Source: Perna viridis
Taxonomy: Eukaryota
DNA length: 64,000 nucleotides
Assembly: GCA_037379345.1 (NCBI GenBank)
Contig: CM074515.1
Span: 12,090,001 to 12,154,000 of the forward strand
Reading direction: 5' to 3'
Shown: positions 37,367 to 64,000 of the stretch, piece by piece
How positions within the stretch are numbered: the stretch's first letter is position 1
Layout of the letters: each line of letters starts with the position of its first letter
The notes under the pieces: generated by a model
What the model saw: the letters and a program-made list of their open reading frames with translations, nothing else
What the model was told of the DNA's origin: nothing
Database searches by the model: none
Position numbers and translations under genes: made by a program

Positions 37367-38406
37367 GGCTAAATAGTTAAAACGGCACCTGGTTAAAATG
37401 GTACATTGTTAAAATGGCACCTAATACAGTCAAAATGGCACTTATTTTCTATAAAATGGCACTTTATTATTGCATTTTTTAAAATAAATTACAAATGCTA
37501 TATAGACCCAACCAATGACAGAATAAATGTTTATTTTCATTAAACATACCAATGTGGATTCACACACACACACAATGACATACACACATTTAGTCATAAA
37601 TATTACCAATATAATACTTTTTATTATTTATTTTATTTATTATTTATTTTGAAGAGCTAATTTCATTAAGAATAGGAAATATTATTCAAGTTTTGATTGC
37701 AAATTCATTAAGTAAATTAGTTTGGGGATTGGATTATGGTTTATGGCTTTGCTAATTACCGATAATGTATGGCTTTGTTTATTTAATAGATGATACAATT
37801 AATATTATTAATTTAATTATTTAAGTAGATTATTTCACTACTTCAATTATAATTAACTATATGTCCTGATATCCATACTTTTGTAAAAATTATAAGTTTT
37901 ATAAGATTATTTACAATGTAATAAATGTGGCATTTACTTCTGTATTTTAATCTAGTTTTTATTTGTGATAAATTTCACACCTTATTTTTTTTTTGGTATT
38001 TCATTTAATTTAATTTTTATTGCATTATATATTTTCCCATTTTTATAAATAATTCAATGAAAATAATAAAACATGTGAACAAAATATTGTAAATGAAAGG
38101 ACAAAATGAAATTTATTCATATGAAATTAAAAAAAAAAATTATCACAATTTTTGCATGACATGTCATGCAAAAACACTTTAATTTTATATCTATCCAAAA
38201 TAAATAACCTCCAAAAAATACCAGGAAGAATACTAAATGTATCAGAGGATTTATTTTCAATATTATTAAATGATTAATCATACATTTATGACTGGTGCTA
38301 TTTTAACTATATACAGGTGCCATTTTGACCAAGTGCCATTTTAACCAGGTGCCGTTTTAACTTCACAGGTGCCATTTTGACCAAGTGCCATTATGACAAG
38401 AATTCC
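37367..38406. mobile_element. MITE-like element with subterminal inverted repeat arrays
   Basis: Arrays of gttaaaatggcac on the left and gtgccattttaac on the right; 27-bp perfect IR at 37375-37401 / 38336-38362. AT-rich interior; TSD not identified. Confidence 0.7.
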
Positions 38407-38808: not shown

Positions 38809-38996
38809 TTGATTTGATTGATTGTTGGGGTTTAACGTGCGAGCAGCCATATCTCAGCCATATTCAGACGATGAACATGAAATTGGTGATAAATGAACAT
38901 GGAATGATGATGAAATCAAAAATGGGATGGGACACAAGGATAACAGGGTCGACAAATTTTGATTGCCACTAGAAAAAGGGAAGAATGGGTAAGGTC
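38809..38996 (-). mobile_element. 5'-truncated SINE copy (same family as 42030-42545)
   Basis: Homologous 3' portion with (caat)n tail; 9-bp TSD ggtatttga at 38800-38808 and 38997-39005. Confidence 0.88.
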
Positions 38997-39204
38997 GGTA
39001 TTTGAGTTACACCACAACCCACAGGGGCTTGCTCCTACCATAGACGTGTAATTAGGTAATCATAGGTCTCTGCTCCCACTATCATATGCGGCCGTGGTTA
39101 TAGGGCTGCATGTATTTGATGGTTGGGCAAGCCCTTGTGGTTTTACGACGTTATCTAATTTTCATACGTTTTATTTGAATAGTGTCCATGAATTTCGAAA
39201 GGCC

Positions 39205-39374
39205 TGTCAGGAAAAACGCGAAGTACTAACTCTTAGCGACATGGTAATGTCGCAGCCATGACGTCTTTATGTGACGTTCTTATAAACATATTATATGGAC
39301 TTCATAAAGACAACATTTAGTAAACGTTATATCTTCTTCAACAGCGCATTATTACTGAGTTTCACCCCTTTTTA
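39205..39374 (+). repeat. 5' LTR of the BEL/Pao element (about 170 bp)
   Basis: Starts with TG, is similar to 52154-52204, and is immediately followed by the PBS. Confidence 0.8.
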
Positions 39375-39384
39375 TGGTGCCGTG
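39375..39384 (+). promoter_or_regulatory. Primer-binding site complementary to the tRNA-His 3' end
   Basis: TGGTGCCGTG directly after the LTR. Confidence 0.75.
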
Positions 39385-39399
39385 CCGCTGGAAATAAAA

Positions 39400-41061
39400 T
39401 CCGAGCCAAGTCTAAAATCAGTTCGTGCAAGACATCGAAGATGCATGACGAAACTACTGCAGAAATTCGATGATCTGAAGGCGAAAACGGATATTGAAAT
39501 TGGCGATGTGAAATCTCTCGAGGAGACGGTGACACAGAAACAGAAAACTCTCATAGACTTGAACGCTAAGATTCTTGAGCAGATACCCGAAGAGGACTTC
39601 GAGCAAGAGCTCACTGATGCAGACGAATACATGTATGTATTACATTGTAAAGTTAGACAAATACGCAAATTTGCCGAGTCATTACAAAGTAACGAAAACC
39701 ACGCAAAATCTACGCAAGATGTTGCACCTACGCCCATCAGACTTAACCGGCATGGATCTACTTACACGCCCACGCCTGCATATTCCGCAGATATGAACAC
39801 TTGTGCAATAGATACACTGAGTAATCATTGCTCCATTCCCGCCCCGGAGATGCATACCCGTCCATCAGACCAAGTTTTGTACGAGAATACGTCCATGCAT
39901 ACTCGCCCGTCAGAAAACGCAACATATGAGATTCCGTCAGGTACTAGATTTCAATCACGCAACAATCATAGACTCCCGAAACTAGACCTACCTTACTTTA
40001 ATGGTGATATACTGAAATGACAGACATTTTGGGATTGCTTTGAATCGTCAATACATTCCAATGACTGACACCCATTCAAAAATTCAGCCACTTACTTGCC
40101 CAGCTGGAGGGAAGCGCCGCACAAACAGTAGGTTCTGCTTTGACCAACGGAAATTAAGATACCGCACTCAATCTACTCAAAGACGGATACGGAAATCCGG
40201 GTAAAAGGGTTCACGCATACATGAAAGCGCCCATGAAATTGCCTGCACCAACAAATGATGTCTATAGAGCATACGGAGATAAACTTGAGTCTAGAAACAC
40301 TTGGTCAAACGTCGGGTATATATGGATCGATCTTAGTACCAGCTATCCTAGAGAAATTGCCATCAGAAATCAGAAAATCTATAGCGCGGGAACACAAGGA
40401 AAGCACGCTAACTTTGGAGAAACTACGCATATCGATCAGCGATGTAATTGACGTACTAGAAGCTGGAAAGGGAGTAGACGAGACGGAAAAAATGCACGCT
40501 ACAGCATTTTTGACGGGAGTGCACCCAAAGAAAAACAACAAGATAAAAAAGAATACAAGACGATCGTGTATATTTTCATCTGGGGACCATTTTCCGATAG
40601 ACTGTACCTAAGTAACGGATGTTAACGCAAGATTGAAAATTGTAAAACAGAAACAATTACGCTATAACTGTTTAGGAGCACACCGTATATCCGCATGCAA
40701 ATCAACAAAACGATGTAAGAAATGCAAATCGATGCATCACACTTGTATCTACAAAGGAAAGGAGTCAACGACGTGCACCACTGAAAAAGCAAAACCAGTG
40801 ACAACAGCTATTAACGAAGTAGAAACGCATGAGACAACTGTAATGCACGCATCACAAAGAAGCAGTGAGATTTTATTGAAAACCGCTGTTGCGTCAGTAA
40901 CCTACAACGACCAAGGAGTTGAAACAAGCATTTTATTTGATGAGGGCGCTCAACGTTCTTTCATTACACAGAAACACGCTAATTGTCCCACAAATTGCTA
41001 TTCCGTTGCAAAACAAGACATCAAATGCGACACGCAACTTACCGTATTTGAGAGGTCTTAA
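39400..41061 (+). pseudogene. BEL/Pao gag and aspartic protease (stops and frameshifts)
   Basis: RLPKLDLPYFNGDILK*QTFWDCF (DUF1759-type), Cys/His knuckles (CIFSSGDHFPIDC; CKKCKSMHHTC) and ILFDEGAQRSFIT protease motif. Confidence 0.9.
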
Positions 41062-42029
41062 GTTGGCACACCCAGTATGAGACGGAGAACGATTTGAGAT
41101 AGACCTACTTGTAGGCTCAGACTACTATTGGGAAATCGTAGCAGATCAAGTGATAAGAGGTAACGGACCCACTCGAAAATCGAAAATTGGATATTTACTC
41201 TCAGGACCACTGAACAAAAACGTTAATCAGACATCAGCGTCAGCAGTAATGCTAAATGTTATAAATCGCATCATTTCGAGGAAATGGAGATAGAAAAGTT
41301 CTGGAAACTTGAGTCCATTGAAATCAACTCATGCGAGGATACGGATGAGACGAACTCATGAAGAAGTATCAGAAAGAGGCTATAACTTACGATAATGGGA
41401 AATATATCGCGATGTTGCCTTGGAAACCATAACACCCCGAACTACCTTCAAATATTGCAGTTACCAAGAGCAGGACCGAAAACATCGCTAGGCGCTTGAG
41501 TAAGGAGCCGTATTTACTACAGAAATACACAGAGATAATCGATGGACAAGAAAGGAGAGGTTTCATATAGAGAGTTCATGAAAGACGATCAAGACAATAA
41601 GCGTACTGTCCATTACATTCCCCATCACCCCATGAAGAAGGACTCCGAGACTACTCCAATCCGTATAGTATACGATTGCAGTTGTAAACCACGTCAAGAT
41701 GCACCTAGCCTAAACGATTATTTGAAGTCAACCCCGCCTGATTTAAAGGACTTGACAAAAATCCTCACGAGATTTAGAATCGGAACGTATGGAATCAGCA
41801 CAGATATCGAGAAAGCGTTTTTGCAAGTAGGACTACAAAAAAGGCTACATGAGAAAGATATGGACGCAACTCGTTTCTTCTGGTTAGCAGACACAAATGA
41901 GTCACATGGAAAACACAACCTACAGGTTCAAGTCGGTATTGTTCGGAGCCACATGCTCACCGTCTCTTCTTAATGCCACTCTATTTAAACACCTAGACGA
42001 GAACAACACTGAAATTTCGGAAACAATGA

Positions 42030-42545
42030 TTGATTGATTGTTGTTGGGGTTTAACGCCCGAGCAGCAATATTTCAGCTATATTCAGGCGATGAACATGAA
42101 ATGGATGATAAAATGAATATGAAATGATGATGATGAAATAAAAAAGGGTGGGCCACAAGGATATGAGGGTTGACAAATTTTGATTGCCACAAGCGGGAGA
42201 GGTGGGTAGGGTCGGGCAATTTAGCCTCCTGTCGCGGAGCGCAAAGGTTCATACTCCTATCGAATACCGCAGCAGGGTTCTTTAACGTGCAAGGAACGTG
42301 GCATCTTTCAAAAGACGGTGCACCACTATGGTTTGCTGTCAGGTTTTCCGTATTATAGCCTGACAACCCCAGCATGTAACACGCCAGTGGTACCCCATTC
42401 AACAACCTGGGGCACACAACCCAGTTGCTGAGTGGGCAGAGCGCCTAGCCCCCAGCTAGGTTTCTGAGCACTATTTAGTCGCCTTTTACGACAAGCTTAG
42501 CGCTGCTGCAAGCCTATTCGTTTGACATCCGGACCTGTACGGGGC
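42030..42545 (-). mobile_element. Full-length SINE-like retroposon with non-tRNA structured head, Meta-like core and (caat)n tail
   Basis: 13-bp TSD tcggaaacaatga at 42017-42029 and 42546-42558; core motif gcacgttaaagaaccc; tail atatagctgaaatattgctg...gcgttaaaccccaacaacaatcaatc. Confidence 0.92.
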
Positions 42546-43771: not shown

Positions 43772-44767
43772 TGTTATCACCAGAAACTATCCGATCAAAG
43801 ATACTTATGTAGGGTCTATGGAAGGACAAATACGAATGGACGAGCCGCTACCACTTAGCATTCAACAGGAATGGACTACACTAGCTAAAGACTTGAAATT
43901 AGCTATGGAAACTGAAATGTCACGACAATATTTCACAACCTCAACAAACGAAAGTAACACTGAGTTAAACGTTTTCGTCGATGCCAGTCAGCGAGCTGAC
44001 GGATCAGCAGTTTATTTGACAAGCGACAATGAATCGAAATTAGTAGTCGCCAAAAGCCGTATAGCACCTCTGCACTAACTTTGCCGCAACTGGAGCTAAT
44101 GGCCGCTTTAGTAAGTGCAAGGATCGCTTCACATGTAAAATCCGCACTGATAGTCAACAAAACCACCTACTGGTCGGACAGTCAAATCGCACTGCAATGG
44201 TTGGTAACAAACAAACAACTGAGGAAGTTTCTACGGAACAGTGTGTCCGAGATCAAATCACTAACAAACGATTCAAACTGGAGATATTGTCTGTCAAATG
44301 ACAACCCCGCCGACAAGAGGGATCAATGCATTGCAATTGGCAAAGTCGAAATTATGGATTAATGGACCGAAATGGATCACTTTCAAAGCTAAATGGCCAG
44401 AATGGAATACGAACACCAGCGTTCTTATGACAAGCGCAGACGTGGAGGAAAATGTTAACGTAGCATTGCAAACCACGAGCGATATGAATGACACAACCAG
44501 GGGCGGGTCCAGGTAAGGGCGTAATGGGCGTACGCCCCCCCTTTAAAAAAAAAAAAAAAAAAACTATCGTTATAATCTGCTAGTATTGTATTGAATGATG
44601 GCAATTTATCATATTCATGAATTAAACACATACTCTGATTTCTTTTTATACTGATTCCCCAATTTGATGGGTCATCATCAACCGTAAAATTTCGTTTCTG
44701 GGAGTCCGGCGTGTTCGACTCTGCGATTAGTATCCATTGTTGTTGATGTGATAAAGAATTCGCAAAG

Positions 44768-47700
44768 ATGTCGATGTCAAAAACAAAACGTCAAAAGACC
44801 TTAAAATCGTATCAAGGTGTCTTGGACACCTTTTTTAAACAACCAAAACGGTAAGTAAATCAGTATAATACATGAATTTTGGTTGTTTTGTGTGACACTA
44901 ACTTCGATTCCCCATAGCCATTCTAAATATACCGGGGGGGGGGGGGGTATATTACTATATATACAATACTGGGTATATTCTGACAAAAGGGGTTGTATTT
45001 TCAGCTAAATTGTCTAAAATGGGGTTATTTTTTCACGCGTTGCCTTGGAAGGGGTCACTCAGATTTGACTATGATATCCAGAACGGGGTTCAAACCTATG
45101 ATTGCGTTGGATAAAAAACGCAATTTTTATACGTGTGCATGCAAAACAAATTTCTTGGTAGAGTGGTATAAATACAGCACAAACAACATTTTCCGTCGGT
45201 CCGTCCATCCCGGTGGTTTTAATACAATAACTCGAGAACGGATACACGTTTTTAACATTTGCACAGTTCAATGTAGTTGTTTAGTGTTAATATTAAATCC
45301 ATGTTTAGCAAAATCTACGAACTATTTTTGTGAGAAATTACAGTTTTATAGTACACTATTTGCCATCCCCTTATGCGTGGCGAGGTATCACTTGTATATG
45401 TTTTGTCAGTATACTATTTAATTACCCTTTAAACCTTCTCAGTCTTTATATACGCAACTCCTGCTACATTAGAGACATTCAAGAATATCTCCCCTGCATT
45501 GTCTTCCATCGGCCACGCGTCAGAGGGGCATGGAAATGGTGGCCTCTGTTCGTCCGTCACACAGTGACTATTTTGTGTACACAACTCCTATGAAACCTTG
45601 GACGGATTCGTTCATTTTTTGCAGGATTGTTTAACATGACATGTAGTTGATATCATTTCGCACCATCATTATAAATGTTTCATTTAATTCTGTATGAGTT
45701 ATGGGACTTGATTTTTTCGGTTCGGGGGGGGGGGCGACATTTGGCTACGTGTATAGCAATGACATGCACTTTAACAAGAATGAAAAAATGGGGAAGTTCC
45801 GTTACAAATGTGTTAAGTGTATCATACGTGTCCGTGTAATTCATATGTTAACAGATTTTGTTTTTGCATTCTAGGCTGGTTTGCAAAGGGTCAATGCATC
45901 AAGGTGATATAAACGGCGGTGGACGACAATGTACGTGCATTGCATTGGCTTTCATGTTGGATAATACTATTCCAAAGACTAGAGATGAAATAGATAATAT
46001 TCTTCTAAGAGGTACTGACTTGTACCATAAAGTTTGTACTACCGATGGCTACATGCTAATAACAGAGTTTCCGGAGAATATTTTTATTGAAAACGAAAGT
46101 TTCTCTATTACAATGAAAGATCCGATGAGTGGACTTGTGGAACAGGAAAGTGACAATTCTGACGCTTTAACATTTACTTTAGAGTCTGCATTACACCAAT
46201 CATTAGCACAGAGTGAAACTTCTTTCATTACACTTGGAAGTAACCCTGGTTCAACTATCGGCTTAAAAAAGGCTCAAGGGATACTTTGTTGTATTGATTC
46301 ACACAGTCGCAATGATATGGGACTATGTGTTCCATCTGGTAAAGCTGTTGTACTGTCAAGTTTGATATCACATATCAAAGATTTAAACAAATCGATCACA
46401 GACCGATTCGCTGAATCACAGTTTGAGATAACACCCCTGGTCAGTTCTAAACTAAGAGTGGTCGACTCTGACGTAGTTGGAGACGTCCAGGCGTCTAATT
46501 CACCGCGATCCACTGACTATGAGACTGACATACCAAATATAGAACATACTAGCCATGAGATGTCAATTGATGAAGAGTCTACGTTCCACTGTGACAACGG
46601 AAGCAACAATAAAACTTCGGGTAAAGAAGTGGATGAGTCTTTTGTCTCCATCAATGAAAATAACGTCGAAACTGCAGATACTCAAAATGATGAGTCATGT
46701 ATGTCCTGTAATGACAATAACGATGAAACTTCCGGTACTGGAGATGATGAGTCACCTATCTTCAACAATGAACGCAACGAGGAAACTGCGGGAATTCCAG
46801 TTGACGATACCTTTGGATCGCAATTATCAGATGATATTGGAGTCATTGATGTACATACCCTATCGGACGATGTAAAATTCAGGATTTTGTCTAATCGGTG
46901 TCCGGAACCAGGCTTTAAATTTCCGTTTAAATTATATAACGATAAAAGATGCAAAAGCGGAACTTTTAAAAGATCTTGTTGTCGCGATTGGTTTGAGCAA
47001 TTCCCATTCATAGCATATTCAAAGTTGAAAGATGGGTTATATTGCCTTGCTTGTAAGTTTTTTCCGGACACATCCGGTCGCCGACCAAGAGTGTTAGTTA
47101 CAGAACCATTCAATAAATGGAAAGACACCACTGTCGATTTGAAAAAGCATGCACAGACTGGTAATCACGCTGACTCGATGGTTAGATTGAATGGGTTCAA
47201 GAAATCGTGTGTCAATCAGTCACACAGAATCGACGTCAATCTGCAATCGAATAATACAGCAATCATCGCTAAGAACCGTGATATAATCAGATCTATGCTT
47301 AAGTGTTTAGAGTTCTGTGGAAGGCGTGGAATGGCGCTTAGGGGACATCGGGATGATGATACAGGCCATAGTAAGAACAAGGGTAATTTCAAAGAACTTA
47401 TTCAATTTAGAATAAATGCGGGCGATACAACCCTAAAACAACATTTTGAAACGTGTTCAAAGGTAGCAACCTACACATCAAACACTTCTCAGAACGAGTT
47501 GTTAACTTGCATTAAGACATACATTCAGAAATCTATTGTGGAAGAAGTGAAGTCCCAGCCTTTTGGTGGATACTTTGGAATCCAATGCGACGAGGTATCA
47601 GACACTAGCAATTGGGAACAATTAGGACTGGTTTTACGTTATGTCGTCGATGGAGTTCCAGTAGAACGCCTGCTAGAATTTATTTTGGCCGAGGAAACCA

Positions 47701-49064
47701 CTGGCGAATCCCTTTGTAATCTTGTCGTTCAGTCCCTCGCTAGTAATGGTTTGGATATCCAGTTATGTAGATCGCAGACTATGGATGGGGCAGGAAATAT
47801 GTCAGGGAAAAACGTTGGATGTGCCGCACGGTTAACACGAATCTCTCCACGCGCAATGTATCATTATTGCGCTAGTCACAATCTAAGTTTAGTGCTGTGT
47901 AAAAGTTGTAAGGTTACAGAAATCCATCTCATGCTAGATTCTCTCAAACAACTCGGGATATTTTTTAAATATTCCCCTAAAAGAAGCCGACGACTAGAAA
48001 CGGCGGTAGAAGATATTAACAACAATCGACAAGAAAATAACAAAATTTCTAAATCAAAATTCAAAATCTTCTGTGAAACTAGGTGGACAGAGAAACACGC
48101 CACACTCGACACATTCGCGACAATGTATGAGGCATTGGTAGCATGTTTAGAAGGCATAAGCTCCAATGAGGGACGTTCGTGGGACCAAAAGGCTATTACG
48201 GATGCTCATGGCATTCTGTCCAAGATAACAGATAGTACATTTATTATTTGCTTCCAAACAGTACACAACTTTTTTGGTTATGTACGTGGAGTAAGTTCTA
48301 AGCTTCAAGGCTCATCTTTAGACATTGTTGAAGGTTATAAAATGATCGGAGCTGTGAAACAGATCATCGATGAAACCCGTAAAAATGAACAAGAGTTTGA
48401 CTTGGTTTACAGTAATGCGTCTGACATGGCAGTAAAGGCCGGACTTGATGAGCTTAAAATGCCCCGTCGTTGTGCTAGACAGACACATCGTAACAATGTT
48501 CCCGCTTCATCAGATAAAGAATACTTTAAACGGGCAATCTACTTACCTTATCTTGATGAGCTAATTCAGCAACTTGATATGCGTTTTGGTCAAGAGGCTG
48601 TCTCTGTTGTTCGTGCCTTGTCAATTTTGCCTTTCCGAGTTCACCTCATTTCCGAAGAGATGGAGAAGGATGTTTATGATTATTACAATACTGATATGCC
48701 TTCGCCTGAAACATTCAGGCAAGAGATGAGACTCTGGAAGTCGTTTTGGGAAAATCAATCGAACAAACCAGAGTCAATAACATCAACCTTAACTGATGTA
48801 AGGGCATGCTCGACTTTATTTCCAAACATCATGAAAGTTCTCTTCTTACTTGCTTTGACGAGCGTCACGTCAAGCTCCACCGAAAGAGCTAACTCATCCC
48901 TTAAGTTGATCAAGAATGATTTGAGAAGCACCATGAAGGAGGATCGCCTAAATGCTCTGCTTCTTTTGTATATTCACAGAGACATTAAACTTGATTTTGA
49001 TAAAATTATTGACGATTACGCCATGAGAAATCCACGTAAAATGGTTCTTATGAATCCACTCTAG
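44768..49064 (+). CDS. Spliced deubiquitinase(VTD/C76-like)-hAT transposase fusion, join(44768..44850,45875..49064), about 1,090 aa
   Basis: Exon 1 MSMSKTKRQKTLKSYQGVLDTFFKQPK ends CG|gtaagt; acceptor tttgcattctag|G; both phase 2. Exon 2 contains GSMHQG..GRQC and IDSHSR (DUB), a TTF zinc finger (W..FPFIAYS..LYCLAC..H), DUF4371 (LRGH, QCDEVSD), MDGAGNM, HYCASH, CETRW, STERANS and a hATC dimerisation tail. No stops. Confidence 0.92.
45885..46440 (+). other. Herpesvirus large-tegument-like deubiquitinase domain (VTD / peptidase C76) within the transposase
   Basis: GSxHQG motif, catalytic Cys codon at 45930-45932, Asp-Ser-His at 46296-46304, closing QFEI strand. Confidence 0.82.
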
Positions 49065-49685
49065 TAATTGAAAATGAGAGTCCGTCAGTATTTTTCTGTG
49101 TTCATTTTAGGTTTTGCGTCAAGGTACATGTATACTAGAAATATGTATATTTCCACATTAAAGCAATACTCAGAACGAAAGAACTTTATTCTTCAGTGTT
49201 TATTTGTCTTGTATCATGTGTGTCGTTCAACGAAACCTGAACTTAATCAAAAATAGAGGGATTACTTCATAATTTGATGCTAAATTGTTGAAATTCAGGA
49301 GCTTCTGATTTTCCCCATGGACCCTCAACCTTAATCACGCCTCTCGTTCATAAAATCCTGGCCTAGGTATTGAAATGTTAAGTTACTCCTTATACCCTTG
49401 AGTTTGGAATTTCTCGTTATTGGTCTACTGCTGTTAAGATCCATCCAATCATTTTAATATACCATAGACAATTAATGGAGAAAACTCGGCATAAAAAATG
49501 TCACACCCTGACACTTTAACTATAAAATATACATGCTCCAAGTCAGGAACCGTTACATTAGTGCAATTCTCTATTATTTTATGTTTTTAAGCCAAAAAAG
49601 GTCCAAAAATCTTTTCGCCTCGCTTCGCTCGACGAAATATTTTATTCTACGCCCCCCCCTTTCAAATATCCTGGACACGCCCCTG

Positions 49686-52036
49686 ACAACAGGAATTCAC
49701 AGAATAGTGGATATCACGAGATTCAGTACATTAAAGCGATTGTTTCGAGTAACATCGTGGATATATCGATTCATTGGGAATTGCCGAAAACCTAGTCTGG
49801 AACAAACAGTGAACAAATTCGTTACATGTAATGAGATGGGGGAATCAAGGGCAAATTGGATAATGACAACGCAGGTAAGGAAATTGAGATTCTGAAATTG
49901 CAGGAAAAGATGACGAATGCGTTAATTCGTCTACTGCAACTTTACTTAGATGAACATGAGATCATTTGTTGCGGTGGGAGAATCCACAATGCTCCGATTA
50001 GTGAACAGTCGAAATTTCCGTATATACTACAAAATCACAGTCGATTCACCGAGCTACTGATATTGGAAATACACGTTAAGATGAAACATTCGGGAGTACT
50101 TGCGATCGTCACCGAAATACGCCTGAACTACTGGATTCCGAAAATACGACAAGTAGTAAAGAAGATTATTCGGAAATGTGTCACATGCCGCAAAGTTATC
50201 AGGAGACTGTAGTGCACCTGATCTGCCGCCACTACCAAAGACACGATTGATGGAAACACCGTCATTTACCATGACAGGTATGGACTTTACAGGAGCCTTA
50301 TTCATGAGAGACTATAATGAATCACAGCCAGTTTTTAACTCATTTATTATAGACCTTCGGAAAGGGTACAAAACTGCAAAGACAGAAACAATAAGCATAC
50401 TAAGTACAACATTTAGATGAAACAAAGTAGATGCAAAGCCTGTATGTTTATGTTAATAACGCGTTCCATACATCAAGTACACATCAAACACAGTCATTTA
50501 TATCATAAAAATATATGAAATATGAACACTCGAAAATACCATCAAACTTGGAGTAAAGAACGTTAAATTAGAACGCGATTGTATTTCTCAACAATCATTA
50601 TGACAAGTTGCTACTGGACAGTACTGTAGTGACAAAAAAATTGTGCATGACACGTTAAGAACGTAATGCCATGAAAAATAAAAGGGCAAAACAGGTGAGG
50701 AATAGTGTAAAACATATTTAAATATGTCCTATAACCTAACGGGAACATCAGGATAAGATAATCAACTCGTAAACGCAGTTAATTGATTTGTCCTTGAACT
50801 CGGTGCCAATATTTTTTTATGAAAACTCAATTAAATATGAAAGGTATGAACTGGGACGATTGACAAGCACTAAATAAACACTAGTAAACAATATAAGCAT
50901 AAACATAAATCCAACTCACCCTGTGGAGGTTCGAACACCAGTTAATAAAGAAAAAATATGCGACGTTGCATAGCCCGTCAAAACAATTGTCCTAAGTAAC
51001 GACTCTATACCGGACAGATCAGTTAAAATTCAGAAGTGACATTACAGAGACATTACCGGACACGACAGCAAAGTTTACATTTGTTTATTCACGAGCGCGT
51101 CAACAAAAACAGTGCATTTGGAAGTAGTTCCTGATGTTCTTGTGCGCGTTTAGAAGATTTACAAGCCAGAAGTCACTACCGAAACTTATGATATCGGATA
51201 ACGCCTCAACGTACCTAGCTGCATCAGAAACTTTAGAGACACTTACGAAATCTATGACACTGAATGGTGCACTATCGTCGTGTGGTACGAGTTCGAAATT
51301 CTTACCGAGACGCGCGCCGTGGTACGGCGGGTGGTTGGAGCGGATGATTGGACTGACTAAAACCTGCCTTCGTAAGACAATTGGAAGATCGTACATCACA
51401 CTCGAAGAACATCAAACGAACGTCAGTGAAGTCGAAGCAGTTCTAAACGATCGGCCGTTACCGTACGTGTCCGCCGATATCAACGACATAGAGCTGCTGA
51501 AGCCATCGCACTTGTTATACGGACCCCGGATTACCGTGACACCGTACCCGAGGGAGGATATTTGAGATACGAACACACACGCAAACAAGAGTGACATTCA
51601 AAAACGTGTGGAAAGACAGATATTCAAAATAGACCAGTTTTGGTCTCGTTGGAAAGCGGAATATCTCACTTCGCTACGCGAATTTCACACTCAAACGGGA
51701 TACAACGAGAAGATCCAAGTGGGAGACGTCGTACAAATTCACGAGGACAAGTATCCGAGAAGCGGATGGACCATCGGAGTAATCGAAGCTCTTGTGACCG
51801 GAAACGATGGACTAAAGAGAGCAGCCGTCGTCAAAACAAGATATGGAACTGCTTCGCGATCGATCGTGAAAATGTACCCACTTGAAATGTGTGACACTAC
51901 GATTAAAAGTGATACATTTCAACCGAAAGACAGAGATTCCTATCAACCGGGAACCAGTGATTCACCAAGAAGATTGCCGATTCGTGGAGCTGCTGTACGT
52001 GTCAGACAGAATGGACAACGAAATGAACTCAGATAA
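49686..52036 (+). pseudogene. BEL/Pao integrase and C-terminal DUF5641-type region, interrupted by a solo LTR
   Basis: H..H...WIPK..C..C zinc domain, GMDFTG, KVYICLFT, ISDNA, GGWLERMIG, FWSRWKAEYL and VGDVVQIHED. Confidence 0.92.
50313..51046 (-). mobile_element. Solo LTR of an unrelated LTR retrotransposon (734 bp)
   Basis: The minus strand begins TGTAAT and ends ATTATA (probably from ATTACA) with AATAAA near the end. TSD gagac at 50308-50312 and 51047-51051. Removal restores FMRDITGHDSKVYICLFT. Confidence 0.82.
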
Positions 52037-53554: not shown

Positions 53555-54013
53555 GATTGATTGGTTATTGGGATTTAATGCCGTGCAGCAATATTTCATC
53601 TATATTCAGGCAATGAACATGAAATGATGATGATGAATTGAAAAAAGGGATAGAACACAAGGATAATAGGGTCGACAAATTTTGATTGCCGCTAGAAAAA
53701 GGGAGGGATGGACAGGGTCGGGCAATTTAGCCTCCTGTGGCGGAGCGGGACGTGCGAGGAACGTGGCATCTTTCCAAACACGGTGTGCCACTATGGTTTG
53801 CGGTCAGGTTTTCCGTATTATAGTCTGACAACCCCAGCACGTAACACGCCAGGGGTACCCCATTCCACCATCTAGGGCGCACATAACCCAATTGCTCTGT
53901 GGGCAGAGCGCCCTAGCCCCCGGCTAGGGTTATGAGCACTATTTAGTCGCCTTTTACGACAAGCTTTGCGCTGCTGCAAGCATATTCTTTTGACACCCGG
54001 ACCTGCACGGGGC
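53555..54013 (-). mobile_element. Second SINE copy with both termini (same family, internal deletion)
   Basis: Same 5' end gccccgtgcaggtcc and same tail; imperfect 10-bp TSD ccttgctatt / ctttgccatt. Confidence 0.9.
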
Positions 54014-60872: not shown

Positions 60873-61033
60873 TACATGTATGAAATAGGTGTAGTCCGGG
60901 AATTGGTCCTTTTTTGTAGGATTTTTTTTTGCAAAAATGAGCAAATTATAGCCTGGAACCTATTTTATAACTTTCTGCATCGGACGCCCCTTTTTATTAA
61001 TTCTTGATTGTATCGTGGTAATTTCTTCTTCAG

Positions 61034-61635
61034 GTGTTTTGATGAGCAGCTACAATAACTTGGAACAACTAGTGGAAATATACAATAATAATGACGACAT
61101 AGAAAATGTCGAAAGATCTGAAATAGAAAAACATATTGTAACATCGATCCTCGTAAAATTAAGACAAGAGAGGAATATATATGGTATGTCTCAACTGCTC
61201 CATCTTTCAAGCAATATTTTGAGGCCTATCATAGAATCTGCGATACTGGAAGCGACTCTGGAAATGCAACGAAAAGAAATATTCACGATACTAGAAATAT
61301 GGCTATTGCTGGATGTCCTCTGCATGCTCCGTACCGATTGTTCTCACTCGTCCAACATCTTGTTATCTGTACTTAACTTGCTGTCGGAATTATTTATGAG
61401 AAAAAACAGGGAAGAATTCTGTCAAAATTGTGAAAAGTTACAGAGTAATCTCAAAGGAAAAAGACGAAATGCACACGTAACTGTTGTTAAGGATTTTGTG
61501 CATAACTTAAATAAATACGGCGACTTGTATCTTTCTGAATATAGTTCTGAAGTTGAAATAGAAAAACGGAAACGATTGTTTGATAAAATGACATTCAGCC
61601 AGAAGTATGTTCTTATTTACACTGTACTGAATAGA
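61034..61635 (+). CDS. Kinase-like gene, exon 2 (Leu-rich, probably helical)
   Basis: Acceptor ttcttcttcag in phase 1, open frame, donor AGA|gtaagt in phase 0. Confidence 0.8.
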
Positions 61636-62219
61636 GTAAGTTGTCCGCCAGTAGCTTTGAAATGTCGTGTGCAGTTTTATTTTAAAAAAGGAGAGCCATC
61701 TCGCAAAATTAAGGCTTGAATATACATGTATAGTTTACATTTGATGAGATGGTTCTTACAGGATTTTTTTTATTTAAAAGATATCTTTGTCTCTGTTACC
61801 CTATATTGATTTAAAATATTTTTTCTGACCCGCTAATTTCGAAATTCTTATGTAAGCAAAGTCATTTCAATATCTAGTTACAAATTATTTCTGTTGTCTA
61901 ACTGGGTACCAGATGAAGTGAAAGTTATTTGTCAGATCTTGCTATTGTACTTTCGATCTGATTTATGGACCCATGAAGTTGTACTCATTATAAAGCATGG
62001 GATGGACCTTTATATTCGTATAGTCATAGTGGTGTCTTTTTTTTAACCCTCCATATAAGTGTGGTAAACTGCTTTTTTACTGTTTGAAATTGAATTCCTG
62101 TCTTTATTTCTACTGTCGACAGTTGTTCATTCTTATGTTTGGTAGACGATGTATTTTGCAAAATTTACATATAGTACTTCAATTGGGAATCTTGGCGAAT
62201 CATGATATTTATATATTAA

Positions 62220-62753: not shown

Positions 62754-63081
62754 GTAATTTGAATACAGTGCATTTTCTTACCTCAACAAAATTGAAATAA
62801 GGTTCAGTTCAGTGTAAGATTTGCCACACAAATTCTATATTTTATTCGTCATCATATATATTTATGTTCTTACAAAAACAAATATCTTTTAAGTCAGATT
62901 TTTTCAGTTCCTTCATTTCTCTATTTGGAAGTCGTATGACTTTTTCGATATCTGCTATTCAATTCTGGTCAAATTATTAATGTTCCTTGCTTTTTGATAT
63001 ACACTCTGCTTTCTTAATAATTAGGTACCAAAAACTTACTTTTATTTCTAAAATTAAACATTAATATGCATGTCGTTACAG

Positions 63082-63864
63082 AAAATTTTATTGACCTTCA
63101 TCCAGAGAGTTTCCTTTGCCAACTGCTAGACGCCTTCGACACGATTTTCATTAACACAAATGTATCTCAGGAGACTAGACTATCTCTTATGGAATTACTG
63201 GAACCATTACTGTTAGTTAGCAACCGTGAGGTAGTTATCAGGATTCTGGCTGTTTTTAGAAAGAACTGCAGCGAGTCAGTTCAAGTGGCAAAGCTAATTA
63301 ACAGCTATGTCAAACAAGAAATACTGCATACTGATATTCAAGTGCGACCTATCAAATGTTTGAACGACGAGGTTCCAACTTGGAAGACTTCAGAAGGGTA
63401 TAATGTATCCAACAGAAGGAGTGTTACACTCAATTGTCTTGTCCCATCTTTGCATTGCCTTGCAAGTAAAAATGAGCCTGGTAAAAATTGTCAATCTGAT
63501 CATCATCACTGTCTAGAAGTGCTCCGCCATCTACAGGACACGACTACTCATTGTTCAATATTACAGCTTTTTGCTTATCAAGTTACACCAAAACCTGTCT
63601 TTTACATTACAGAGAAAGTTTCAACTTTGACACTTAACGAATTTCTCTTGACAAAACGTAAATCATCTAAATGGTTACCGACGAAAGACCTGCTCACTAT
63701 TGCGCTCGAGGCCACCGACGCCGTTGAGTATTTACAGTTGAAGTCTGTTGTTCATCGTGATATTACTACACACTCGTTCAGGGTATGTGATAGAGGGTCA
63801 AGATTAGTGCTTCATGACTTTTCCTTGGCGCTTATCTTTGAGAATGGACAGCAGGAAATGAAAA
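63082..63864 (+). CDS. Kinase-like gene, exon 4: N-terminal part of a TK/TKL-like (pseudo)kinase domain; gene probably continues past the window
   Basis: H..ILQLFAY, FYITE, L.EFL, IALEATDAVEYL, VVHRDITTHS and LHDFSLA; acceptor in phase 1; donor A|gtaagt. Confidence 0.85.
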
Positions 63865-64000
63865 GTAAGTGTTCAAGATGATTTTTTTGTCGCATTTAAA
63901 TGTTGATTTTGTAAACATACATCCTCATTAATTTACAGAAATCATTCTTAATGTCAACTATTGTGAATAAAATAATTTGCTAGAGATTTTGTGGGTACCG

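Follow-up and report, generated by a model that had tools for sequence, protein, structure and literature searches.

The locus described here raises the question of whether a transposase that is visible as one long open reading frame has a further exon upstream, and what such an exon would contribute to the protein. The window (the whole stretch of DNA that was analysed, 64,000 nt) holds a 5188-bp (approximately 5.2-kb) hAT element at 44498-49685, and a preliminary description had claimed that a short exon, missed among the open reading frames, splices in phase and places a PIP box ahead of a deubiquitinase and a transposase. We find that an exon of 83 nt, from an ATG at 44768 to the donor CG/GTAAGT after 44850, can be joined in phase 2 to the acceptor TTCTAG/G at 45875, and that the spliced product is open over 1090 aa, with a basic patch, a PIP box, a predicted VTD deubiquitinase (DUB) and a hAT transposase in that order (Table 1). 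The long ORF itself, 45852-49064, has an in-frame stop just upstream of the acceptor, and its first ATG is M35 of the spliced product.

Table 1. Features of the hAT element and of its two-exon gene, in window positions.
Feature	Position	Strand	Basis
Left 5-bp TSD, ACAAC	44493-44497	.	Sequence; 5-bp TSD also in 17/18 other copies with both ends
5′ TIR, 16 bp, 15/16 identical to the 3′ arm	44498-44513	+	Sequence; copy boundaries
Transcribed 5′ UTR part of exon 1, start site unmapped	44574-44767	+	X1 contig; X21 sense reads
Coding exon 1: NLS-like basic patch, PIP box, phase-2 donor	44768-44850	+	Sequence; RNA ends in X1, X2, X21
PIP box codons, QGVLDTFF	44813-44836	+	Translation
GT-AG intron, 1024 nt, putative junction	44851-45874	+	Phase; splice-site scores
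Predicted VTD domain, Gln46-Cys47 and Asp169-x-His171	45875-46460	+	pLDDT 95.7; 8ADD, 2J7Q, Foldseek
Acidic low-complexity linker, length varies among homologs	46461-46850	+	Alignment
hAT transposase: zinc-finger region, DUF4371, C-terminal dimerisation domain	46851-49064	+	Pfam; motif positions
3′ TIR	49670-49685	-	Sequence
Right 5-bp TSD, ACAAC	49686-49690	.	Sequence

The donor at 44850 ranks first of the 94 GT sites in 44560-45860, with 6.2 bits against 1.4 for the next on a rough generic matrix, and among donors above 2 bits only the ATGs at 44768 and 44774 yield ATG-open in-phase exons. Other AG sites compete within the intron, the one at 45625 being slightly better than 45875 on pyrimidine content. 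The predicted VTD fold aligns to the Helitron VTD structure 8ADD from its first residue, L29; the whole domain would therefore require the upstream exon, and a protein begun at M35 would lack the first part of the fold. The open reading of 1090 aa, the best donor of 94 and a PIP leader of the same length in a Mytilus homolog (P0272, below) bear out the claim of a hidden first exon in phase. Judged by its sequence, exon 1 is real, a transposon exon of the kind that is overlooked when genes are called from ORFs, and we hold the 44850>45875 splice to be very likely.

The motif can be read directly in the product as the preliminary description gave it. QGVLDTFF occupies residues 16-23 and satisfies the consensus Q-x-x-[ILM]-x-x-F-[FY] as given in PMC5371812; KTKRQK lies upstream and KQPK follows the box, with the Lys at +4 being residue 27. 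Taken alone it proves little, because 6% of 2000 shuffles contain a strict PIP box by chance in the three plus-strand frames of 44498-45874 (approximately 1.4 kb), and conservation has to decide.

Four of the 24 listed runs were compared: X1 and X2 are contigs, taken as RNA by guess, X15 is DNA-like, and X21 is raw RNA that is labelled as another organism and of which about 6% was read. In all three RNA or RNA-like runs, pieces stop exactly at 44850 and then run into other sequence, which shows that the donor is used in RNA. The X1 contig covers 44574-44850, the stranded X21 reads are sense-only across 44581-44942, and the DNA-like X15 contig passes uninterrupted through the donor (44599-44903). 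Reads across 44850>45875, which had been proposed as the check on the exon, were seen in none of the three RNA or RNA-like runs (X1, X2, X21) among the pieces listed, where the depth over the ORF was low (X1 about 1-10, X2 0.2-8, X21 near 0). Exon-1 depth in X1 is 88, far above that of the ORF, and deleted copies of the element therefore seem to supply most exon-1 RNA. Depth in X1 is zero across 45486-45847 and is back in the acceptor bin, as fits splicing; X2 has depth throughout the intron and little in the acceptor bin, and is of no help to the splice. One X2 contig skips 3715 nt (45408 > 49124) between GT..AG ends that overlap by 3 nt; the donor context at 45408 is weak, and a deleted copy is therefore as likely an explanation as a splice.

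The continuation in X1 maps once in the genome, at G000:C7:33834315 (minus), behind a canonical pyrimidine-rich AG; 1229 nt away lies the donor that belongs to a deleted copy. This copy (G000:C7:33834643-33835907; L041, L062, L063) is located within an intron, and the exons of the host gene in question are signal-peptide-like, Ig-like and LDLa-like by weak Pfam matches under the cut-off. Read in the PIP frame the chimera meets a stop after 47 aa, and it is possible that the deleted copy acts as a transposon-derived alternative first exon of the host gene. The X2 continuation from 44850 had no exact match in G000, and that of X21 is 16 nt long.

All three observed continuations from 44850 thus go elsewhere, with the 44850>45875 junction unseen, as would be expected if exon 1 were never joined to the VTD exon, occurred only in chimeric host transcripts and left the transposase to start at M35; the database ORFs P0008, P0265 and P0270 begin at this same Met. 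On the other hand, M35 lies within the VTD fold and is not conserved among homologs, whereas the position and phase of the acceptor are conserved in other families and the gene model P0272 has the joined form. We consider a start at M35 highly improbable, and favor the spliced product.

Conservation of the motif in related elements, a further check that had been proposed, is seen in P0272, in a second family of the same genome (L058) and in eight of 103 homologs. P0272 is the RefSeq protein XP_063442576.1 of Mytilus trossulus, 54% identical to the window protein, and its leader of 28 residues, equal in length to that of the window, holds a basic patch and the strict PIP box QGRIDAYF before LVCKG. 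All four Mytilus gene models that were compared, namely those with an intact VTD start, add residues upstream of that start; the PIP leader is found in one of the four, the M. edulis models P0001, P0271 and P0276 having other short first exons with no PIP box. A second, decayed VTD-hAT family in G000 (family B), with a VTD 34-52% identical, has at L058 a mini-exon of 74 nt and phase 2, which encodes QSRLDSFL and can be joined in frame with R-LACKG; L060 of this family reads QSRLDSFS and in L059 the motif is lost. At the equivalent VTD position an AG acceptor is also present in L087, a metagenome locus that starts inside the intron. Exon 1 was not found in the metagenome loci, of which 20 were found and 11 examined, and none of these extends far enough 5′. 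In read-through ORFs, the residue at the acceptor is Arg in 9 of the 18 close VTD homologs vs 3 of 33 more distant ones. No database protein with the exon-1 peptide was found in a weak search that used the 50-aa frame of L028, with 20 exon-1 residues. Identity of exon 1 among copies of the element itself (24 of 29 identical) was discarded as evidence, because the copies are 97-99% alike throughout and such identity is no sign of selection.

The preliminary assignment of the DUB to the herpes-tegument (VTD) family is confirmed by fold matches together with an intact Cys47, Asp169 and His171, which align with the motifs of 8ADD. The model of the domain has a pLDDT of 95.7 and a Foldseek E of 1e-12; it matches 8ADD with Z 23.2 (rmsd 2.3, 188 aligned) and the herpes M48 DUB 2J7Q with Z 19.9, the next unrelated fold reaching Z 11.1. 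Among non-gap homolog rows the triad is kept as Cys in 37/38, Asp in 43/44 and His in 43/43. Pfam gave no VTD match (PF04843, precomputed for P0001 and P0002) in the window protein, P0001 or P0002, and the identity was therefore settled by the fold search. The predicted domain is very likely to be an active DUB. In PMC9741609, Helitron VTDs are described as cleaving K48 and K63 chains in vitro, and two of them NEDD8 as well. Four proteins among the best 150 VTD matches (P0013, P0034, P0040, P0064) have two or three VTD stretches each.

Downstream of the linker, Pfam recognizes PF14291 (DUF4371, E 3.5e-20) and, just below the cut-off (20.3 bits vs 21.4), the dimerisation domain PF05699 (E 5e-4). 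The residues D600, D665, E1031, the CxxH of C693-H696 and W765 are present, and we take these to be the hAT catalytic-motif positions. The element has what marks a hAT, namely a DDE with CxxH, a dimerisation domain, and short TIRs with a TSD. Helitrons are the known carriers of VTDs, and this identity was ruled out by the hAT domains, TIRs and TSDs; a Helitron would encode a RepHel protein, and Helitrons are not known to have TIRs or a TSD. A TSD of 5 bp defines hAT5 (PMC12730594; Kapitonov and Jurka, 2007, as cited there), and by this measure the element is hAT5-type, the tree of its relatives comprising search hits only and no named hAT5 references. Homologs carry the database name '52 kDa repressor of the inhibitor of the protein kinase-like' (PRKRIR/THAP12-like).

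All 18 copies with both ends read have a TSD, which is 5 bp in 17 and 8 bp in one (21 loci were taken, 3 of which gave no row), and 5 bp are also found at the window element and at the deleted C7 copy. The copy with the 8-bp TSD is the full-length L028 (G000:C15:16972903-16978040), whose exon-1 start is also damaged. The genome contains at least 10 full-length copies of 97-100% identity (40 candidates scored per search) and, as a lower bound, many internally deleted ones that retain the first 400-530 bases including exon 1. Of nine other full-length copies, the spliced reading is complete in three, meets an early stop in five and has a damaged exon 1 in one. The element thereby appears to be young or recently active, with four of the ten listed full-length copies, the window copy included, giving a complete reading. 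Proteins labelled Mytilus galloprovincialis, M. edulis and M. coruscus (P0260, P0263, P0265, P0266, P0267) share 88-98% identity with the window protein, and horizontal transfer would be a candidate explanation if the window host belongs to a genus other than Mytilus.

Around the element, the window shows a broken Bel/Pao-type LTR retrotransposon into which the hAT is inserted (about 39286-41973 and 43780-52036), recognized by Integrase_H2C2 and DUF5641 matches downstream; the ORF at 39286-40020 is presumably gag-like, by its motif. A 1-kb MITE-like element with 48-nt inverted arms and short internal repeats occupies 37375-38362, and a dispersed repeat is present in three copies, 60-92% alike, at 38822-38998, 42041-42545 and 53564-54013. 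Two plus-strand ORFs, at 63021-63881 and 60952-61719, give a protein kinase match (E 3e-10) and a weak Pyr_excise match (E 0.006, under the cut-off), respectively.

The PIP box extends beyond the VTD elements. Of the 103 homologs, 8 have a strict PIP box within their first 60 aa, where counts of 0.12 (internal windows) and 0.25 (shuffles) would be expected, and the maximum in 1000 shuffles of the 103 was 3. As the homologs are related, these are not eight independent events, and many of the 103 are predictions truncated at the N-terminus. In a post hoc subset of 37 homologs with N-termini of DUB-free length (170-300 residues ahead of the transposase core, picked afterwards) there are 8 strict PIP boxes (shuffle mean 0.03), and the hydrophobic core of the motif is present in 17 (shuffle mean 0.56). 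All eight strict-PIP homologs are without a DUB, and they are found on several branches, including the sister group of the VTD-containing clade, of a tree of 101 rows that was built by a quick method, the careful search being unfinished. A basic patch precedes 11 of the 12 PIP motifs compared. In the same genome, one DUB-free family apparently begins with a strict PIP box, which is intact in 3 of 20 other hAT loci and frameshifted in a further 2; L066, L070 and L074 (also L065, L082, L073 and L080) are DUB-free hATs that open with a PIP or PIP-like motif.

Sister lineages have an OTU domain in place of the VTD, with P0164, P0165 and P0219 at or over the cut-off among 17 scanned. N-terminal OTU matches under the cut-off are seen in P0226 and P0235, and the cnidarian-labelled homologs P0231 and P0232 have related OTU-like N-termini by blastp. 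The simplest history that these sequences suggest is an ancestral leader of NLS and PIP box behind which DUBs were inserted more than once; as the homologs stand, the PIP box is not tied to a DUB. The preliminary description had proposed a module of PIP box, DUB and transposase. All three parts lie in the one spliced reading, but a dedicated pairing of PIP box and DUB is weakened by the PIP boxes of DUB-free homologs and by a DUB that can be swapped for an OTU.

It had also been suggested that the motif follows the CRL4-Cdt2 degron pattern, for which PMC8871960 gives TD at positions 5-6 and a basic residue at +4, with a basic +3 as well in human cells. If so, the transposase could be destabilised in S phase and the DUB could counteract this. 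The window does have Lys at +4, family B has Arg there, and a DUB-free family again has Lys. However, TD at 5-6 occurs in 0/12 motifs compared (the window has DT), a basic +4 occurs in 3/12 at a K/R background of 24%, the window has Pro at +3, and the +4 residue of P0272, the closest VTD sister model, is Pro. The degron pattern does not hold up against these counts and we consider a Cdt2 degron very unlikely; the PIP box would instead be a docking motif.

We lean, by a modest degree, towards an overall explanation in which an ancestral NLS-plus-PIP leader is a clamp tether and a DUB added later protects the transposase. Exon 1 would then encode the N-terminal tag ancestral to this hAT clade, with a basic patch for nuclear import and a canonical PIP box, and the exon-1 PIP box probably binds PCNA. 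The tag would most likely hold the transposase on PCNA where DNA is being replicated or repaired, and such a tether could bias excision and insertion to S phase or pass the gap to repair. The VTD may later have been placed between tag and transposase core, behind a phase-2 intron, where sister lineages have the OTU. The DUB would most likely trim K48 and K63 chains off the transposase or proteins in its complex, allowing survival on chromatin, a role suggested because Helitron VTDs show that specificity; we put such self-protection just short of an even balance. Deleted copies, which retain exon 1, would yield most exon-1 RNA and splice into flanking host sequence. We point out that the host PCNA gene is itself split by introns.

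Alternatively, the PIP box could aim the VTD at PCNA (K164 ubiquitin) or at cullin ligases of the fork, altering the choice of repair pathway, in the manner of EBV BPLF1, which reportedly has a PIP box and deneddylates cullins. In three families the VTD follows immediately after the PIP box, PMC4092849 and PMC11225014 both cite the deubiquitination of PCNA by BPLF1, and the NEDD8 cleavage by two Helitron VTDs (PMC9741609) points the same way. Nevertheless, the strict PIP box stands without a DUB in all eight cases among the 103 homologs and in a DUB-free family of the same genome, and the type of DUB is swappable between VTD and OTU. As the PIP box occurs without any DUB, it needs none as its explanation. 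Nothing that was found favors a DUB acting on PCNA over self-protection, and we regard a PCNA-directed DUB as unlikely.

PIP-like motifs are promiscuous, and the basic leader with its QxxLxxFF might serve mainly nuclear import or another partner, with docking on PCNA being irrelevant to transposition. The basic patch ahead of 11/12 motifs would agree with this, and according to the review PMC5371812 it is unclear what PIP boxes contribute to the function of transposases. What is kept on distant branches, however, is the full pattern of Q-x-x-hydrophobic-x-x-aromatic-aromatic and not basic residues alone, and we consider this explanation quite unlikely. Of the docking tether one bolder version can be imagined, in which several animal hAT5-type lineages separately put a VTD or OTU behind an ancestral, PCNA-riding PIP box and so created a DUB directed to the clamp, able to edit the ubiquitin of PCNA or of PCNA partners where transposition takes place; deleted copies would also spread the PIP exon to host genes. 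We hold this to be doubtful. If true, a cut-and-paste transposon would have reached the same trick as BPLF1, and in host genes the PIP exon would have become a cryptic exon or a new first exon.

These observations touch on two open questions, namely how cut-and-paste transposons are coupled to replication and what role accessory ubiquitin proteases have. Clamp motif and DUB appear as separable parts, and the PIP-only and OTU relatives can serve as natural controls. In the literature covered, with Repbase Reports and subscription journals lying outside it, no VTD-hAT or OTU-hAT fusion and no clade-wide N-terminal PIP box of animal hATs was found. The term 'hAT' is absent from the text of the VTD paper (PMC9741609) and from three of its supplements, although the paper does mention VTDs of cnidarians in fusion with transposon-associated domains that it leaves unnamed.

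The element resembles the hAT5 or PRKRIR/THAP12-like hATs in its DUF4371 and dimerisation domain, short TIRs and 5-bp TSD, and differs from them in its N-terminal VTD DUB and the split-off PIP exon. With the Helitron VTD DrT1 (PDB 8ADD), herpes M48 (2J7Q) and BPLF1 it shares the fold and the Gln-Cys and Asp-x-His motifs. Helitron VTDs are likewise carried on a transposon, whereas the carrier here is a cut-and-paste hAT, which adds hAT elements to the Helitrons as carriers of VTD enzymes. Fusions of a transposase with a ubiquitin- or SUMO-type protease (OTU or Ulp1), with introns, are described for Ginger1, Mutator and Helitron elements in PMC2836005, where a role in transposition or repair is proposed; transposase superfamily and protease class are other than here, and Ginger1 has the domain at the C-terminus and not, as here, at the N-terminus. 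Like Cdt1, p21 and Set8 (PMC8871960), the window protein combines a PIP box and a basic +4 residue in its N-terminal leader, but unlike in these degrons there is no TD and no basic +3, and the +4 residue is unconserved. The closest parallels for the clamp motif are pogo of Drosophila, Tigger, Lemi1 and LINE-1 ORF2p, transposition proteins with a canonical PIP box according to PMC5371812, which reports PCNA binding through it for the pogo transposase and ORF2p and has already put in print a putative PIP box in a hAT, maize Ac. In contrast to these, the PIP box described here lies at the extreme N-terminus, recurs in a clade of animal hATs and, in the VTD members, appears to have a mini-exon of its own.
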